From assembly GCA_964368095.1 (NCBI GenBank), contig CAYIZT010000001.1, positions 1-62,776 of the forward strand: a stretch of DNA of 62,776 nt. The letters are read 5' to 3'. Every line of letters begins with the position of its first letter. Within the stretch, counting starts at the first letter, position 1. Under the pieces are notes generated by a model. The model was not told where the DNA came from, did not search any database, and was given only the letters and a program-made list of their open reading frames with translations. Made by a program: the position numbers and the translations under genes. Positions 23,208 to 62,776 of the stretch are shown here, in pieces. This DNA is from an uncultured Methanosarcinales archaeon (GTDB taxonomy: Archaea; Nanobdellota; Nanobdellia; Woesearchaeales; GW2011-AR9).

Positions 23208-23354
23208 GCTTTATCCACTCCCGCACTGGACAACCTTGGCTTAAGTATATAAACCAGTTGTGTTGCATTTTTCTTAAAACGCCATTCAGCTACTAAATTA
23301 TAATTTTTGTTAGTAACTGAAAATCATTTATGTAGCATCAGGTTCAGAATAATT

Positions 23355-24545
23355 ATGAAAAATACAACTCCACCGAAGCTTGTCCTTAGCGAGTTAGTTT
23401 TACCTACTAAATTAAGAGATTTAAAAGATCATTTTGCCGTTACAGTTTACAAGGATGTACGGAAAAAGTTAGCCATTTCAAAGGGAACTTTACTTCTCTT
23501 GAATGTGGATGGATATGAGCTAATCCGACAAGTATATCCTGATTTTCACATTACCTTGCCAAAGAGGCTTCTCAACTATCAGAAATATGGTGATGAAATT
23601 GTCTTACCTATCCTGAAAATAATAAAGCCTGAAGAATGTGAAAGAAGACCAATGAATGCTTTTTTAGAAAATAAACTAGATATTCGTTACTTTATTCCAA
23701 CAAAAACAGTAAATAGTATTCCGCTTCATATTATTGAAAGGAATCACGCGACTTCCTCCATCTGGTACTCAGTAGCCGGAGGCGTGCAACACGTAACCTT
23801 ACAACATTTTGCTGACATAGTCAAAGTTGCTGAGTTCTTAGGCTTCTATTTTGGCGATGGAACTACTTGTGATGGAATTCAAAGTTTCATATTAACAAAC
23901 TGCGAATCTTCAATACTAAATCACTGCATCGACTTCTGTGAAGAAGTAGGTATTAAAAGAACGCTTTGGAAAGTACAGGTCATTTACAGCACTAACAATG
24001 AGCTAACTCCAGAAATAAAGCAACGTTGCACAGAATACTGGAGCAAAGTTCTCAAACTTGAAGAAGAGAAAATTGTTTCAGTAACTAAATCCAAGAGCCA
24101 AAATGAAAGTTACCCTCATGGTTCAGCAAGAATTTTCATTGATAACACCATTTTAGTTGAAATATTCCTTCGTGGTCTTCTCAAGGGCGTAATCCAGCAT
24201 ATTTTCAATCCGCAAGAAACTGAAGATTATCAACTTATGGAAGGTTTTATGAGAGGCTTGCTCGCAGCGGAAGGCTGTGTTCTCTTAAATAAAAATGGAA
24301 GCGTGGTTAGAGTAAGTATTGCCTTCGATCCGCATTCTTCGGAGTTAGAGTTTTACAAGGTTCTGCTTCAAAATCTTGGAATAAGATATCATGCTGTAAG
24401 GAATAATGAATTGATTATTCAAAAGTATGAAAATATGCAGAAATTATATCGAATGGAAGCTTTCAAGCTACACTCAGAGCGACATAAAAAATTTATAACT
24501 GGGTTCAAAAACCATAAATTCTTCAAATATTGTGAGCTTGTATAA
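23355..24545 (+). CDS. Free-standing double-motif LAGLIDADG homing endonuclease
   Basis: Two LAGLIDADG-type helices: FLGFYFGDGT and FMRGLLAAEGC. The track ORF starts at a TTG at 23307; the first ATG is at 23355. Confidence 0.75.
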   Translation: MKNTTPPKLVLSELVLPTKLRDLKDHFAVTVYKDVRKKLAISKGTLLLLNVDGYELIRQVYPDFHITLPKRLLNYQKYGDEIVLPILKIIKPEECERRPMNAFLENKLDIRYFIPTKTVNSIPLHIIERNHATSSIWYSVAGGVQHVTLQHFADIVKVAEFLGFYFGDGTTCDGIQSFILTNCESSILNHCIDFCEEVGIKRTLWKVQVIYSTNNELTPEIKQRCTEYWSKVLKLEEEKIVSVTKSKSQNESYPHGSARIFIDNTILVEIFLRGLLKGVIQHIFNPQETEDYQLMEGFMRGLLAAEGCVLLNKNGSVVRVSIAFDPHSSELEFYKVLLQNLGIRYHAVRNNELIIQKYENMQKLYRMEAFKLHSERHKKFITGFKNHKFFKYCELV

Positions 24546-26406: not shown

Positions 26407-26421
26407 TTTTCCTTTCCCTCC

Positions 26422-26472
26422 ATTGTTTATTGAATGGAGACACTGAGAATTGAACTCAGAACTTTTGGTTTG
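26422..26472 (-). other. tRNA-Trp 3'-half-like remnant (a direct-repeat copy of part of the gene at 28223..28293)
   Basis: The minus strand reads CAAACCAAAAGTT-CTGAG-TTCAATT-CTCAG-TGTCTCC-A, so the T arm and 3' acceptor strand are intact. No matching 5' half is present. A 12/13-bp hairpin (26473-26503) lies directly upstream. Confidence 0.55.
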
Positions 26473-27270: not shown

Positions 27271-28196
27271 TTATGCCTCCTTATATAGTTTTATGATATT
27301 GTCTAGAACAAGAGCGATAGCTTTGCGTTTCAGCTTTTTCCCATACAAAGAATTGATCTCATCCTCTTCACAGCAATCTAATCCCAAAATGTGCCCACTC
27401 ACTGAAGCAATTTTACAAAAATACCGCAAGGCTTCATCACAACTTTGCTCCAGTTTTTGTCGAACTTTTCTTTCATCATCCTCTAAGAAAATTCTTTGTC
27501 CGTTATTTGGTCCACGAGAACTAGGAACATAATGAACAACAACATCTGCAGTTTTAGTTCCTAAAGCGTAGGCATCAAGAAGATAGCCAAATGAGATGCT
27601 CGAATTAAGTGCTTGCATAATCCTATCGTACTGTCTCTCCTTGGTCGGACCTACTTTCAACGAAAAACTACGGGAAGCCAGAAATTGAATACATGATAAT
27701 TCATGCATGGGATAATCTCTTGCTCCACTAAGCTGTCTTTTATTTTCAGGAACAGTTTCTATCAGTTTTTCAGTTAAATTTGAACTTCTAATTCTTTCCG
27801 TAGTTTCCTGAAAAATAGAACTATATCCTTCAGAACTCATAAACTCAGAACAGAACAAAATATTGGTCTTAAAACCATACACTGCGGTAAATTTTTCCAG
27901 TGCTTGTACCAGTCTGTCTCTTCCGCTCTCAATCAAACTGTCATCTTTACCATTTATTTTTAAAAATTCGTCTACAACTAACAAGCTAAAATCATCTAGG
28001 AAGGAGTATAACAAATAAATGGGCAATATATCTATAGGGGTTCCGGCGGCATCAAATCCAAGACCAAAAAATGCTTTTTGTGTTTTATCTTCTAAGCTTG
28101 GTGCTAAAACGCCACCGACAGTAATTCTTATTTATTTCTATTTTTCGTATACTTTCACTATTCTGTTCTGATCCATGCTTATTTTCTGTTTTCATT
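27271..28196 (-). pseudogene. TyrRS-like class Ic synthetase homologue with degenerate HIGH/KMSKS motifs and an apparent N-terminal frameshift
   Basis: The frame is open over 27271-28131 with no ATG before the TTG at 28026. It aligns by eye to archaeal TyrRS: GFDAAGTPIDILPIY against GFEPSGKIHLGHYL, YPMHELSCIQFL against YPIMQVNDIHYL, and VPSSRG...IFLEDDERKVRQKL against KMSSSKG..IAVDDSPEEIRAKI. An ATG at 28196 with an SD-like GTGAGG lies in a different frame (ORF 28196-28092). The total span is about 308 codons, the size of a TyrRS. Confidence 0.5.
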
Positions 28197-28222
28197 TTTC
28201 TTTTCCTCACTTGTTTATTGAA

Positions 28223-28293
28223 TGGAGACGCTGAGGATTGAACTCAGAACTTTCTGGTTGGAGCAGAATATTTTAGCGTTAAACTACGCCTCC
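28223..28293 (-). tRNA. tRNA-Trp (anticodon CCA)
   Basis: The minus strand reads GGAGGCG-TA-GTTT-AACGCTA-AAAT-A-TTCTG-CTCCAAC-CAGAA-AGTT-CTGAG-TTCAATC-CTCAG-CGTCTCC-A. This is a 7-bp acceptor stem with one G:U and 71 nt in total. The D loop lacks GG and no CCA is encoded. Confidence 0.6.
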
Positions 28294-32122: not shown

Positions 32123-32178
32123 TTTACTTTTTTTTTGCTAAAATGTTAGTATTTAAACTTTATGTGCTTACAGTAAAT

Positions 32179-32789
32179 AAAAGAATTGCTTAAATTTCAG
32201 GCACAAGAAATGTGAAAATATCAACATTTCTGTGCAGAAAGACCTTGTCTTTCTTGCATCCCAGCAATTCTTAATTTCAATTTTTGGGCCGTAGCAAGCT
32301 ACGGGGTACAAGAAAAGAAGAAACTACTTCTTTTCTGTACAGAAGGCTACGCTTTCTTGTATTAGACCCAAAATTGAAATAAAAATAAGCGCCCGGAGGG
32401 AAAGTCGAAGCTCCGCTTCTAGTTTTGTTCCACGGAAACTTACTCGAACCCTCGATCTGTTCCTCTGCAGGGAACCGCTTTAGCCGCTTAGCCACGGACG
32501 CATATTAAAGCCAGAATAAAGATTATTTATATAGTTTTGGGCATAAAGCATATTTATTGTTCAATCATCTATTGTTTAATCTCCTTATTTATTCCAGAAT
32601 ACTCCTTTGCTTGTTATGGTTGGGATTTTTATTTCAATTTTGGGTATAATACCCCGTAGCTTGCTACGACCCAAAAATTGAAATTAAGAATTGCTGGTCA
32701 CGAAGTGAAAATTTCAGGCAATACCCCACAGCTTGCTGTGAAGTGAGCGAAGCGAACGATGGGATGCCTGAAATTTAAGCAATTCTTTT
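32179..32789. repeat. Three nested inverted-repeat pairs enclosing tRNA-Cys
   Basis: Pair A: 32179-32203 and 32765-32789, 25 nt, perfect. Pair B: 32261-32308 and 32650-32697, 48 nt, 1 mismatch. Pair C: 32366-32386 and 32625-32645, 21 nt, perfect. Perfect local hairpins occur at 32236-32254 and 32311-32336. Confidence 0.85.
32388..32501 (-). tRNA. tRNA-Cys (anticodon GCA) with a ~41-nt insertion in the T arm
   Basis: The minus strand reads GCGTCCG-TG-GCTA-AGCGGCTA-AAGC-G-GTTCC-CTGCAGA-GGAAC-AGATC-GAGGG-TTCGA[insert]..CCCTC-CGGGCGC-T. The discriminator is U73, as expected for Cys. The exact insert boundaries are ambiguous because TTCGA is repeated. Confidence 0.65.
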
Positions 32790-33564
32790 ATTTGTTACTC
32801 AGCCACTTTACATAGGAGTATAATATCACCGAAAGATTAACCATCCTCATATTGGCGTTATAAGCGGCGTCCACGCCTTTCTTGATCTTCAGAATATTCT
32901 GCTCAATCGCTTCGACTCGCTGTAATTCCTCTGTCGGGAGTCTTCGTTTGATGGTATTAAAATCAACCTTATTATACTCTTCTTCTAAAGAGACATGGAA
33001 AAAGAATCCTTTTTGCATACTTTCCAATAAACCATTGACTTGAGCGACAGGACCTTCATGTACCATATCCGGAGCATGGAACACAAACCCTTGATTGCGC
33101 AGTAAAAACTGGAATAAGCCTTTCACTTCTTCATTTACCCGCAACTTTTCTTCTTGAGTGCGCAATTTAGGGATCTGATTCAGCAACTCCGCTAAGGCTG
33201 AGGAGGAAGTAGCCTGCCACACCTGCACTTGTTGCAAATAGGATAAATTACTCTCCAATGCCGCAGTGATCGGAGCTAAGGCTTGGGTGGCTCGCTGCAG
33301 ACTGACTGCTTCGTATAGCTCTGATCCTAATTGCGCTAATGATTTAATAGACTCAATAGTGGGCTCAACCAAGGCTGCTGTTTCTTCGATAACCTGTAGT
33401 TCGCTGGAAGAGACAAAAAATTCGCAGAACGCTTCTTCCATCACCTCTTCTTTGAGCGGAAGCTTTACTTTTTCTCTTAAATCTCGGACAAGATACACGC
33501 TTTCCAAATCAGCCATCTTGGCCGAGAGATGAGTAAGCTGATGAATGTATAACATGGTTTTCAC
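32788..33564 (-). CDS. Hypothetical helical protein
   Basis: 258-aa ORF that overlaps the stop of the upstream zinc-ribbon gene by 4 nt. Confidence 0.45.
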   Translation of the reverse strand: MKTMLYIHQLTHLSAKMADLESVYLVRDLREKVKLPLKEEVMEEAFCEFFVSSSELQVIEETAALVEPTIESIKSLAQLGSELYEAVSLQRATQALAPITAALESNLSYLQQVQVWQATSSSALAELLNQIPKLRTQEEKLRVNEEVKGLFQFLLRNQGFVFHAPDMVHEGPVAQVNGLLESMQKGFFFHVSLEEEYNKVDFNTIKRRLPTEELQRVEAIEQNILKIKKGVDAAYNANMRMVNLSVILYSYVKWLSNK

Positions 33565-49860: not shown

Positions 49861-49980
49861 CGGACCCGAGGGGATTTGAACCCCCGACCTACAGCTTAGA
49901 AGGCTGTCGCCCTATTTGGCTAACGCCCAATCCCCCCTTTCCTGAGGGAACTGCGGGTATCCAGTCTAGGCTACGGGTCC
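49861..49980 (-). tRNA. tRNA-Arg (anticodon TCT) with a 45-nt insertion at the D-loop/D-stem junction
   Basis: The minus strand reads GGACCCG-TA-GCCT-AGACTGGATA-[CCCGCAG...GCCAAATA]-GGGC-G-ACAGC-CTTCTAA-GCTGT-AGGTC-GGGGG-TTCAAAT-CCCCT-CGGGTCC-G. The acceptor stem is perfect. The gene is 75 nt mature plus a 45-nt insert. Confidence 0.7.
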
Positions 49981-58875: not shown

Positions 58876-59643
58876 ATGAATGCACTACAATTAGCATTGA
58901 AGCCAGGACAAGAATTGTTTGAAGGAGAGTATCGTACTAAAATGGCTGAATTGCGTCAAGCAGGATACACTCCTTGGAGTACAGAAGATTGGATGGATGC
59001 CCGTAATGGTGTTGATTCTGATAATCCTTTATGGAACAATTATGGCGATACTGATTTCGGCATTGCCGGAAGCAAACAGAAAATCTATCTGATGCCTCAT
59101 TCTGAGAGATTACGAGCAGTTACGCCACAAACAAGATTAATCAAAGGCGGTCTTTCATTTACTCAAGATGGAGCAGTATCGACATACAATCGGGGCGATC
59201 TTATTCTCGGCAGAGATTTGACTGAAGAGCAGGCAAGAACAAGTCCGGTTTGGCTGGATTTCGCGGCCGGCGATCAGAAGCAATTAGACAGGTATGTTGA
59301 AAAAACATTCCGTTTTGGAAAAGACAAGTTTAACTATGATACTATGATGGGCATTTTTGTGCCTGAGGATGAAGTTGAACGGGCGGTATTGCTCTATAGA
59401 CTTAACTATAGTTCTCGTGCCTATGGCAGCTACCATCTTGGCAACAACACCCGTTTCGTTGGGGTACGTCGTGGGAGCGAAGCGACCAAGGTGCCCGCAG
59501 GGCGCGACGCGCAAACAGTAAGTCCTTATCGGAAAGATCCACGCTCTGATCTAGAAATTTTTCTGAGTGAACATAGTCTATCCAAAAATGAGTTATACAA
59601 AGCGGTAGAACTATATAAAACCGTGAAAGAACTAAAAGTTTAA
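58876..59643 (+). CDS. DGR target (variable) protein, likely C-type-lectin/FGE-like fold
   Basis: Contains the VR at 59380-59466 in frame. The VR-encoded segment ends in NNTRFVGVRR, resembling the N-x-G-F-R-V-x-R ending of CLec-fold DGR variable regions. The track ORF starts at a GTG at 58834; the first ATG is at 58876. Confidence 0.8.
   Translation: MNALQLALKPGQELFEGEYRTKMAELRQAGYTPWSTEDWMDARNGVDSDNPLWNNYGDTDFGIAGSKQKIYLMPHSERLRAVTPQTRLIKGGLSFTQDGAVSTYNRGDLILGRDLTEEQARTSPVWLDFAAGDQKQLDRYVEKTFRFGKDKFNYDTMMGIFVPEDEVERAVLLYRLNYSSRAYGSYHLGNNTRFVGVRRGSEATKVPAGRDAQTVSPYRKDPRSDLEIFLSEHSLSKNELYKAVELYKTVKELKV
59380..59466 (+). repeat. DGR variable repeat (VR)
   Basis: Matches 59843-59929 over 87 nt with 12 mismatches. 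At 11 of them the TR has A and the VR has T or G. Confidence 0.85.
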
Positions 59644-59842
59644 GAACTTCTTCTTTTTCTCTTGTTTTGTCCAATACGGCGCTATCAAAGCGCTCAGCTC
59701 GGACTACATGCTCTTGTGCTAGGGCTTAAGGCGACTTAGCTATGGAAATTTCAGCATAGACATGTTCTATCGCTGATAAGACAGCTGCGACTACCAGAAG
59801 GATGAAGCAGCAGTGCGGTAATGGTATAAGGGCTACAGACGG

Positions 59843-59929
59843 CGGGCGGTATTGCTCAATAGACTTAACAATAGGTCTCAAGCCAATGGCAACAACCATC
59901 TTAACAACAACACCCGTTTCGTTGGAATA
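59843..59929 (+). repeat. DGR template repeat (TR)
   Basis: An intergenic copy rich in AAY triplets (it would read NRLNNRSQANGNNHLNNNTRFVG), located 27 nt upstream of the RT start codon. Confidence 0.85.
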
Positions 59930-59955
59930 GCCTGGGCTGGTATTGGTATTGTAAA

Positions 59956-61098
59956 ATGGGGAACTTTTCTTCTCAAGATACTTATTCTCTTTATGATCAA
60001 GTTTGTTCTCTTCAAAATCTTCAAGCAGCGTTCAGCAAGGCGCGTAAAGGAAAAACAAAGAGGTCCGACGTTCTAGAATTTGAATCTAACTTGAAGAACA
60101 ATTTACTGCAGCTGCGTGCTGACTTGCTCTTGCATTCGTACCGCCCACAGCCGCTGACTACGTTCATCATTCGCGACCCAAAGACCAGAAAAATTAACAA
60201 ATCAGCATTTCGTGATAGAATAGTACATCATGCTCTCTGCAATATTCTTGAGCCCATCTATGAAAAGATATTCATTTACGATAGTTATGCCAATCGCAAA
60301 GGCAAAGGAACTCTCAAAGCACTGGAACGATTCGATTATTTCAAAAAAGAAGTTGCGATTCCCTATAAAGGCTATATTACTGGCTATTGTTTTAAAGCTG
60401 ATGTCAAACATTATTTTGAGACTGTTGATCATGATATCCTGCTTAATATCATCCAACGCAGGATTAAAGACAAAAGTATTCTATTCTTACTCAAGAATAT
60501 TCTCTCAAATTACAGCAATAGCGGGCAGGGAAAAGGCATGCCTCTCGGCAATCTTACCTCACAATTTCTCGCCAATGTCTATCTGAATGAGTTGGATCAA
60601 TTTGCGAAGCATACTCTTAAAGTGAAACTCTATATCCGCTATGTTGATGATTTTGTAATCTTACATAAAAAGAAAGAGGTCTTAGAATTCTACAAACGGG
60701 AAATTGATTCATTTTTACAGCAGAAGCTTAGGTTAGAGCTTCATCCTCTAAAATCCAAAATAATTCCCTTACGTAAAGGAATTACCTTTCTCGGCTTTCG
60801 TGTTTTCTATTATCATAAATTACTTCGAGAATCTAATTGGCAAGCGGCTAAAAGAAAAATAGTTTCTTTAAAGAATGACTTTGACAAAGGAGTGATTGAT
60901 TATGATGTCGTGTTCGATAGCATGATGGGCTGGTTTGCCTACGCCAAACAGGCGAATACTTTTAGAATTAGGGAAATCATTGGCAGAAAATTAGAAGAAT
61001 CTTTTCCTAACCAGCTATCAAGTATTGAATTAAGAAAAATAATAAAAATTTCCGTTAAACTGCCGAGACTAAATAATCCCTCTGCCTTTAAAGCGTAA
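59956..61098 (+). CDS. DGR-type reverse transcriptase
   Basis: 380 aa. RT motifs are IRDPKTRKI, FKADVKHYFETVDH, GMPLGNLTSQFLANVYL (the DGR-typical I/LGxxxSQ) and RYVDDFV. No maturase X, endonuclease domain or intron RNA domains are seen. Confidence 0.9.
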   Translation: MGNFSSQDTYSLYDQVCSLQNLQAAFSKARKGKTKRSDVLEFESNLKNNLLQLRADLLLHSYRPQPLTTFIIRDPKTRKINKSAFRDRIVHHALCNILEPIYEKIFIYDSYANRKGKGTLKALERFDYFKKEVAIPYKGYITGYCFKADVKHYFETVDHDILLNIIQRRIKDKSILFLLKNILSNYSNSGQGKGMPLGNLTSQFLANVYLNELDQFAKHTLKVKLYIRYVDDFVILHKKKEVLEFYKREIDSFLQQKLRLELHPLKSKIIPLRKGITFLGFRVFYYHKLLRESNWQAAKRKIVSLKNDFDKGVIDYDVVFDSMMGWFAYAKQANTFRIREIIGRKLEESFPNQLSSIELRKIIKISVKLPRLNNPSAFKA

Positions 61099-62494: not shown

Positions 62495-62729
62495 TATAGT
62501 TTTATATTATCTCCTGCTCCTATTCATAACTTCTTATGGTTGCGCAAGAGGTAATCCAACATTCCAACTACTTTTTCATCAAGATGTCTGGCATCAATAG
62601 AAACTATAAGATCGTCTCGGGATAATACCATAACCCTATCGCTATGCAAATCGCAGTCTTTGTCTTCGATGAATAGATATTCCCCATTCTCCGCAGGTTT
62701 TGTAAAATAACAATATTTTCTCTTTAACT

Positions 62730-62757
62730 AGGCAATTCCCCACAGCTTGCTGTGGGG
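62730..62757. repeat. Copy of the hairpin repeat AGGCAAT(T/A)CCCCACAGCTTGCTGTG
   Basis: 62730-62754 matches 32716-32740 with 1 mismatch. Here the hairpin extends to CCCCACAGC-TT-GCTGTGGGG (62738-62757). Confidence 0.8.
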
Positions 62758-62776
62758 TAAAACACTTATAGCCCAC

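Follow-up and report, generated by a model that had tools for sequence, protein, structure and literature searches.

Two Inverted Copies of a Probable IS200/IS605-Derived Element Enclose a tRNA-Cys Gene in a Woesearchaeota-Like Archaeon

A tRNA-Cys Gene Lies Within Three Nested Inverted Repeats

We analyzed a 62,776-nt stretch of archaeal DNA (contig CAYIZT010000001.1 of GenBank assembly GCA_964368095.1; the whole stretch is referred to below as the window) in which a tRNA-Cys gene is enclosed by long inverted repeats. The gene (anticodon GCA, 114 nt, minus strand, 32388..32501) lies downstream of a 258-aa open reading frame (ORF) and upstream of a gene for a PmbA/TldD-like protein. This protein is identical to one encoded on a Hainich groundwater contig, and its relatives are annotated as proteins of Nanoarchaeota or Woesearchaeota metagenome-assembled genomes (MAGs). 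The host is a DPANN archaeon and is Woesearchaeota-like.

A repeat scan detected three inverted pairs arranged concentrically around the tRNA. The outer pair (module A, 32175-32203 and 32765-32793) measures 29 nt and is 100% identical, the middle pair (module B, 32261-32308 and 32650-32697) measures 48 nt with one mismatch, and the inner pair (module C, 32359-32386 and 32625-32652) measures 28 nt with one mismatch and a perfect 20-nt core. An earlier note on this DNA had given arm lengths of 25, 48, and 21 nt, which are correct as minima. It had also placed the inner arm 1 nt from the discriminator base of the tRNA, reported perfect local hairpins at 32236-32254 (8 bp) and 32311-32336 (10 bp), and read from the sequence that the submotif AAGAATTGCT recurs in the outer and middle pairs, all of which we found to be exact. 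Arm patterns of 23 and 28 nt were seen in 0 of 100 dinucleotide shuffles of the window, and at no further site in its 62.8 kb. The repeats around tRNA-Cys are far beyond chance.

The Inverted Repeats Are Two Copies of One Composite Element

Alignment of the region 32165-32400 with the reverse complement of 32615-32803 showed that the three pairs are colinear modules of one composite element, here named X, which is present in two copies of opposite orientation lying 240 nt apart. Copy X1 (32175..32386, with its top strand on the minus strand; delimited by the alignment and by the empty site described below) is made up of module A at 32175-32203, B at 32261-32308, and C at 32359-32386, and is situated between the T-rich trailer of the tRNA and the PmbA/TldD promoter. 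Copy X2 (32625..32793, with its top strand on the plus strand; delimited by repeat scan, alignment, and single-stranded DNA fold) overlaps at its 3' end the final codon and the stop codon of the 258-aa ORF. As the two copies are inverted, their three shared modules appear as three concentric inverted repeats. The pairs reported in the earlier note therefore exist, but they are two inverted copies of one composite element that have since acquired indels. The termini of X, CAATTTTGGG... and ...GCAATTCTTTTATTT on the top strand, are not inverted repeats of each other.

Between X1 and X2, 29/29 positions are identical in module A, 47/48 in B, and 20/20 in the core of C (99% over the three modules), and the copies otherwise differ solely by three indels, S1 and S2 in X1 and H in X2. 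S1 is a 53-nt palindromic insert (32204..32256, plus strand) at the foot of the right-hand module of X1, with the termini CAAGAAA/TTTCTTG and the flanks CA/CA. Its 51-nt relative S2 (32309..32359, plus strand) has the same 7-nt termini and the flanks TA/TA, and interrupts X1 exactly at the junction of GGGTCTAATA with the CCCCGTAGC hairpin. S1 and S2 also have the centre TTTCTGTRCAGAA in common, and each folds into two tandem hairpins. At the homologous points X2 is uninterrupted to the base, with GGCA running directly into TCCCA (S1) and GGGGTA directly into TTATACCC (S2). The S-element pattern occurred in no other fetched locus. H is a 65-nt core (32698..32762, plus strand) that is present in X2, missing from X1, and bounded by TGG direct repeats. 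It contains the second hairpin of X2 (32716-32740), which reads AGGCAATA-CCCCACAGCTTGCTGTG. As single-stranded DNA, X2 folds into two long hairpins (z = -7.6), one left-end-like (32631-32684) and one right-end-like (32686-32787), in the sense of the insertion sequence (IS) ends described below.

Six-frame peptides of X1 and X2 returned nothing at E ≤ 10 in a collection of 5.8 billion proteins. A 72-aa ORF at 32277..32495 is an artefact, as the earlier note had already judged: it lies on the same strand as the tRNA and X1 and overlaps both, and the X peptides have no relatives, the query having covered X1 and X2 and not the tRNA part of the ORF. Rfam contained no family for the arms. A blastn-short comparison of X1, X2, S1, S2, H, and the insert within the tRNA gene (see below) with all fetched loci gave hairpin-core matches alone, and a scan of viral contigs gave ten single matches, which were uninformative.

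The Element Is Absent From Orthologous Loci

We compared the window with loci encoding relatives at 66–73% identity. The gene order of small ORF, 255-aa ORF, tRNA-Cys, PmbA, and NFACT is kept in L004, L002/L003, and L142/L143. All of these have the same tRNA-Cys exons and all lack the arms. The genes are separated by an intergenic gap of 665 nt in the window, of 295 nt in L002, and of 198 nt in L004. An empty X1 site is visible in L002, L003, and L142; in L002 it reads GGGCGCT-TATTTCTATTT-ACTGTAAGCACATAAAG, where the window has GGGCGCT-TATTTTTATTT, 212 nt of X1, and then ACTGTAAGCACATAAAG.

Contigs of several relatives break 70–150 nt upstream of PmbA. At one such contig break (L145, positions 1-60), a 13-bp inverted repeat, CCAAATGCACTAA...TTAGTGCATTTGG, lies upstream of PmbA around the T-loop-like sequence GGTTCGAAT.

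Hairpin Modules of X Match IS200-Type Ends

The hairpin core of X has the form CCCC-RY-AGCTTGCT-RY-G and is preceded by ATA or ATT, which is also the core of the left and right ends of IS200-type elements. In X2 the left-end-like sub-terminal hairpin (32640..32668, plus strand; X1 counterpart at 32308-32289, minus strand) reads GGGTATAATA-CCCCGTAGCTTGCTACG and sits within an outer stem, in the same layout as metagenomic left ends. The module B hairpin CCCCGTAGCTTGCTACG in turn resembles the H hairpin CCCCACAGCTTGCTGTG.

Scanning metagenome contigs for CCCCRYAGCTTGCTRYGGGG yielded at least 120 loci with conserved flanks, on contigs of 30–68% G+C and many of them at contig ends. Clustering of the neighboring ORFs gave, among the matches listed, a family located at a median of 29 nt from the hairpin and matching Pfam Y1_Tnp (E = 1e-35); at seven loci, again among the matches listed, the hairpin lies 6–60 nt 3' of a Y1_Tnp gene of ~148 aa. 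The upstream ends of these Y1_Tnp elements read GGGTnTAATT-CCCCGnAGCTTGCTnCG. Fusions of a left and a right end without a transposase (~100 nt) also occur, for example twice in L056. Rfam assigned no family to 20 hairpin-bearing metagenome loci, except for an unrelated group II intron.

For nhmmer, profiles were built from the metagenomic left and right ends, without the window. They matched exactly four sites in it, at 32640-32668, 32308-32289, 32719-32738, and 62733-62759, with E-values between 4e-6 and 2e-3 when each site is scored by its best-fitting profile (X2 left end, 4e-6; X1, 1e-4; H hairpin, 1e-4).

The last of these sites belongs to an IS200-like left end (62716..62776, plus strand), which reads TTTAACTAGGCAATT-CCCCACAGCTTGCTGTGGGG-TAAAACACTTATAG and at which the contig ends. 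Its hairpin and the second hairpin of X2 have the flank AGGCAAT in common, which is specific to the window and which recurs together with the H hairpin at 62730-62754. The 24-mer of the window-end hairpin was found at eight GTDB loci, seven of them from four Woesearchaeota MAGs and mostly 50–80 nt from contig ends. In L154 the whole element is present, consisting of a left-end hairpin, tnpA with the HVH motif, and a right-end hairpin; in L149 and L152 (Woesearchaeota) and in L111 the hairpin is followed by MVRKAAHSAYDIHYHLVIV, a typical N-terminus of a Y1 transposase. Since the same hairpin heads Y1-transposase elements elsewhere, the last 60 bases of the window are an IS200-like left end, and the corresponding transposase gene would lie beyond the contig end. 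L019, from another assembly, ends with the last base of the window, and L020 breaks off 25 nt before it, within the hairpin. We also considered whether the hairpin at 62730 is part of a conserved protein N-terminus (TPQQAVGN), and rejected this, because that frame contains a stop codon in the GTAG-type copies and tnpA begins on the opposite strand.

Two further hairpin arrangements were observed among the fetched loci. A sub-class (for example L048, L058, L059, L104, and L131) has the form GAAyCnnnAGCGAGCGCATT-hairpin-TTAGCGAGCGAAT...GGATCGAAGA-second hairpin, and at least ten loci of the sub-class lie ~500 nt from hybrid histidine-kinase genes (HisKA_7TM, HATPase_c, Response_reg, and Hpt). 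In the Woesearchaeota MAG locus L152, a solitary nested palindrome at 1795-1885 reads AATTCC...GAAAAATCGCC-GTAATG-CCCCGCAGCTTGCTGCG-...GGCGATTTTT...GGAATT and, like the left module of X, is built as a hairpin within a hairpin.

The tRNA-Cys Gene Carries a Probable Intron in Its T-Loop

The tRNA-Cys on the minus strand (32501..32388) is real, as the earlier note had read it, although its length of 114 nt, which results from an insert in the T-loop, had been overlooked there. The gene has the acceptor stem GCGUCCG/CGGGCGC, discriminator U, and the anticodon loop CUGCAGA. Neither ARAGORN nor Rfam at the gathering threshold reported a tRNA at 32388-32501, and with an E-value threshold the Rfam tRNA model scored 21 bits on the gene. 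It goes uncalled because of the T-loop insert; once 32403-32441 was removed, ARAGORN called tRNA-Cys(gca). The insert therefore hides the only tRNA-Cys gene of the window from standard finders, and would lead to a false report of a missing tRNA in assessments of genome completeness.

The insert is 39 nt long (32403..32441, minus strand). A bulge-helix-bulge (BHB) geometry scan found one good motif in it, of the hBHBh' type (a BHB between two further helices), with the central helix UCGA/UCGA, the bulges GUA and CUU, and a 6-bp inner helix; the outer helix is the T-stem after one U-U. Judged from this predicted structure, the insert is probably a non-canonical intron. Canonical BHB cleavage occurs after the second base of each bulge. 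Splicing by this rule would give a T-loop of 9 nt, UUCGAGUUU, compared with the usual 7 nt and with UUCGAGU in the orthologs, and the predicted 9-nt loop leaves the functionality of the gene in doubt. The insert is lacking in the orthologs of L002, L004, and L142, whose exons are the same, and a homologous insert with compensatory changes in the stem is found in a relic 3' half in L002. The insert is thus present in the window, absent from three close relatives, and seen as a displaced relic in a fourth. One conceivable history is that it is a recently gained, BHB-mimicking intron, a small mobile element whose spread was part of the same burst as that of X, S1, and S2. We think this very unlikely; if true, the locus would be a snapshot of the gain and loss of a non-canonical tRNA intron in a DPANN archaeon.

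A TATA box, TATATAAATA (32524..32533, minus strand), is centred ~28 nt upstream of the mature 5' end of the tRNA and lies inside all three pairs. L002 and L004 share the conserved block CCCAAAAC(T)TATATAAATAATCTTTATTCTGGCT, and the box would act as the tRNA-Cys promoter. An oligo-T tract directly follows the gene at its 3' side. With the TATA box inside the arms and oligo-T after the tRNA, the predicted transcript of the tRNA itself cannot contain the arms, which would lie outside its transcription unit.

In relatives, tRNA-Cys is a recombination hot spot (L002, 5769-5945; L006, 5765-5945). In L002, an intact tRNA-Cys with no intron is separated by 13 nt from a downstream 3' half that begins at the anticodon loop and includes the T-loop insert. 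In L006, the old gene is reduced to a decayed 3' fragment, preceded by a different tRNA-Cys, whose insert lies in the anticodon region, together with an EamA gene and a LAGLIDADG-like ORF. These partial copies are of the att type and are a separate phenomenon from the arms. An origin of the arms themselves as integrase att sites was rejected, since att duplications are direct repeats and the arms are inverted.

A second tRNA gene of the window, tRNA-Arg(UCU) (~49862-49978, minus strand), has an insert of ~50 nt near the D-arm. It was missed by ARAGORN, Rfam matched it at model positions 8-63 only, and a strict BHB scan gave no splice pair restoring a standard tRNA. This non-canonical insert indicates that the organism does carry such introns.

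Other Features of the Window

A diversity-generating retroelement (DGR) is located at 59380-61098. It has an 83-nt repeat with a variable copy (59380-59462) and a template copy (59843-59925), the template having A in 9/10 mismatches, and is followed by a 380-aa reverse transcriptase (YVDD; on contig L019, which is identical, it matches Pfam RVT_1). An 11-nt match, GAGCGAAGCGA, is all that would link H to the DGR, and was treated as chance.

The 3' 38 nt of tRNA-Trp (28223-28293, minus strand), together with a 28-nt trailer, are duplicated 1.8 kb away at 86% identity. The duplicates (26407-26472 and 28195-28260) bracket an Asp/Glu racemase gene and a 251-aa ORF, and look like attL and attR of a small integrated element or its remnant. 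At 23307-24545, next to a gene for a class I (Trp/Tyr-type) tRNA synthetase, lies a 412-aa ORF that matches LAGLIDADG_3 weakly (E = 4e-5).

Discussion

[quoted passage not shown] Hairpin modules with the core of IS200-type ends, combined with the lack of terminal inverted repeats, make X most likely a PATE. PATEs of Haloquadratum derive from IS605-type elements, lose their core by repeat-mediated deletion, and have small mobile repeats inserted into their near-terminal palindromes (PMC3119063). We infer the following order of events. X would have moved as single-stranded DNA by means of a Y1 (HUH) transposase supplied in trans, giving rise to two oppositely oriented copies of ~170 nt, of which X1 is situated in the tRNA's T-rich trailer and X2 at the upstream ORF's stop codon. 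After both had arisen, X1 would have lost its 65-nt core between the TGG repeats, and would also have been invaded twice, at the feet of its hairpins, by the 51–53-nt double-hairpin element represented by S1 and S2. The arms would have no role of their own at the RNA level.

Several observations weigh against this reading. X is known from a single locus, with no third copy in the 62.8-kb window, and a 21-mer of the B arm had no match in the GTDB species representatives or in JGI metagenomes (collections that do not include this genome). No Y1 transposase gene lies within the window. The second hairpin of X2 has a degenerate 3' stem, and the hairpin core with which the metagenome loci were fetched was itself taken from the window, so that the independent evidence consists of their flanks and their linkage to transposase genes. 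Finally, an 8-nt direct repeat, TTTTATTT (top strand), is found on both sides of both copies, and on the left-end side 10 nt are identical for the two. IS200/IS605 elements normally make no target duplication and have targets of 4–6 nt. Going by its sequence, the flanking repeat resembles either a duplicated target or a very long one, and both would be atypical of them. It may represent a target together with a right-end terminus that happens to look like it, a genuine duplication made by another enzyme, or a sign that microhomology-templated repair produced the second copy.

Two other explanations for X were considered. X might be a classical MITE, or miniature inverted-repeat transposable element, mobilized by a DDE transposase with TTTTATTT as its 8-bp target duplication, S1 and S2 being MITEs with 2-bp duplications and the similarity to IS200 being convergent or secondary. 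The presence of the same 8-nt repeat around both X copies fits this, and the 7-nt terminal inverted repeats and the CA/CA and TA/TA flanks of S1 and S2 fit it as well. However, X has no inverted repeats at its termini, an identical 8–10-mer would have to be hit by two independent insertions, which calls for an unusual target specificity, the scanned ORFs of the window included no DDE transposase with matching ends, and the homology to IS200-type ends is specific, extending over hairpin and flank. We therefore find a DDE-type MITE unlikely. The earlier note, which had named nested MITE insertions as its alternative, was essentially right, with two corrections: the arms are two inverted copies of one composite element and not three concentric pairs, and the element itself looks like a palindrome-associated one of IS200/IS605 type and not like a classical MITE with terminal inverted repeats. 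It is also possible to suppose that X was inserted only once, and that the inverted copy was made by microhomology-mediated templated repair or template switching between the naturally inverted 10-mers AAATAAAAAT in the stop region of the ORF and ATTTTTATTT in the tRNA trailer. Such a local duplication would account for the identical 10-nt flanks, the 99% identity in modules A, B, and C, and two copies 240 nt apart with no other in 62 kb. Yet the boundaries of the copies coincide exactly with the element plus the 8-nt repeat, as transposition predicts, three indels have accumulated between the copies, and there is no direct trace of a repair event, and we rate this origin as quite unlikely. 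An invertible-segment switch was rejected: no recombinase gene lies in the vicinity, the promoter moves together with the gene, and the orientation in L001 is the same.

The arms had been likened in the earlier note to the processing stems of archaeal rRNAs. On such a reading, a read-through transcript from the upstream ORF would fold into a long helix around the tRNA and serve its processing or regulation. The geometry permits read-through, since the 258-aa ORF, the tRNA, and PmbA are all on the minus strand; the fold of a 631-nt RNA is strong (-253 kcal/mol, z = -22), and the mismatch in the B arm is a G-U pair in minus-strand RNA. A stable fold follows trivially from inverted repeats, however, and the mismatch of the inner arm is U-C, leaving one of the two arm mismatches incompatible with wobble pairing. 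The note had proposed a search for BHB motifs at the helix junctions; their number did not exceed the shuffle level (16 and 21 motifs, compared with 12.7 and 14.8 in shuffles), and there was none at an arm junction on either strand, the lone BHB between the arms being a shifted register inside a perfect duplex. The arms are missing from the orthologous loci (L002/L003, L004, and L142/L143), the conserved TATA box at 32524-32533 lies inside them with oligo-T directly 3' of the tRNA, and a T5 run inside X2 would stop archaeal RNA polymerase. Taken together, these data make a processing stem extremely improbable.

Read as a PATE with nested small repeats, the feature is real and fairly ordinary, and here it is met in a DPANN archaeon. 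For annotation, it illustrates that where long inverted repeats enclose a gene concentrically, they can stem from a single decayed mobile element present in two inverted copies, and that comparison of orthologous loci settles such cases quickly. IS200-type elements and their transposase-less derivatives are active in small Woesearchaeota genomes, their hairpin-bearing ends are common to Woesearchaeota and many bacterial metagenome contigs, and such elements break assemblies at tRNA-proximal sites.

Among known systems, X can be compared with the PATEs of Haloquadratum walsbyi (Dyall-Smith et al., 2011, PMC3119063). Like X, which is too short to encode a transposase, these are transposase-less, have no terminal inverted repeats, and carry near-terminal palindromes resembling those of IS200/IS605; in both, copies differ by deletion of a core between short direct repeats, and small mobile repeats use the element as a target. 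Unlike them, X resides in a DPANN archaeon and not a haloarchaeon, is seen in two copies, has no cognate transposase gene visible within the window, and is flanked in both copies by an 8-nt direct repeat, whereas no target duplication is described for PATEs (PMC3119063). S1 and S2 correspond in the same way to the small mobile repeat SMR-A of Haloquadratum (PMC3119063), being small, having terminal inverted repeats, and lying inside another element beside its near-terminal palindromes. They are shorter, however (51–53 nt compared with ~110 nt), have 2-nt flanking repeats and no sequence similarity to SMR-A, and are known in two copies.

Elements of the IS200 group (Y1/HUH TnpA, PF01797) have a left end of the form GGGTnTAAT(T/A)-CCCCG.AGCTTGCT.CG and a right end of the form (G/A)ATA-CCCC..AGCTTGCT..GGGG, as X does. 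Woesearchaeota MAGs contain such elements (L154), and one has its left end at the end of the window. X differs from them in being without tnpA, in its partly degenerate right-end hairpin, and in its terminus, TTTTATTT compared with AGnTTCATT in bacterial copies. Bacterial repetitive extragenic palindromic sequences (REP), their paired form (REPIN), and the associated RAYT transposases (Nunvar et al., 2010, PMC2817692) are alike in having G+C-rich extragenic hairpins, a link to a relative of Y1, and inverted pairs that form longer hairpins. Here no single-copy gene of the RAYT type flanked by repeats was seen, and the associated genes look like ordinary IS200 tnpA between a left and a right end. 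The likeness to archaeal rRNA processing stems and BHB tRNA introns is limited to the T-loop insert of tRNA-Cys with its good hBHBh' motif; in contrast to processing stems, the long arms have no BHB, are not conserved, and would lie outside the transcription unit of the tRNA.

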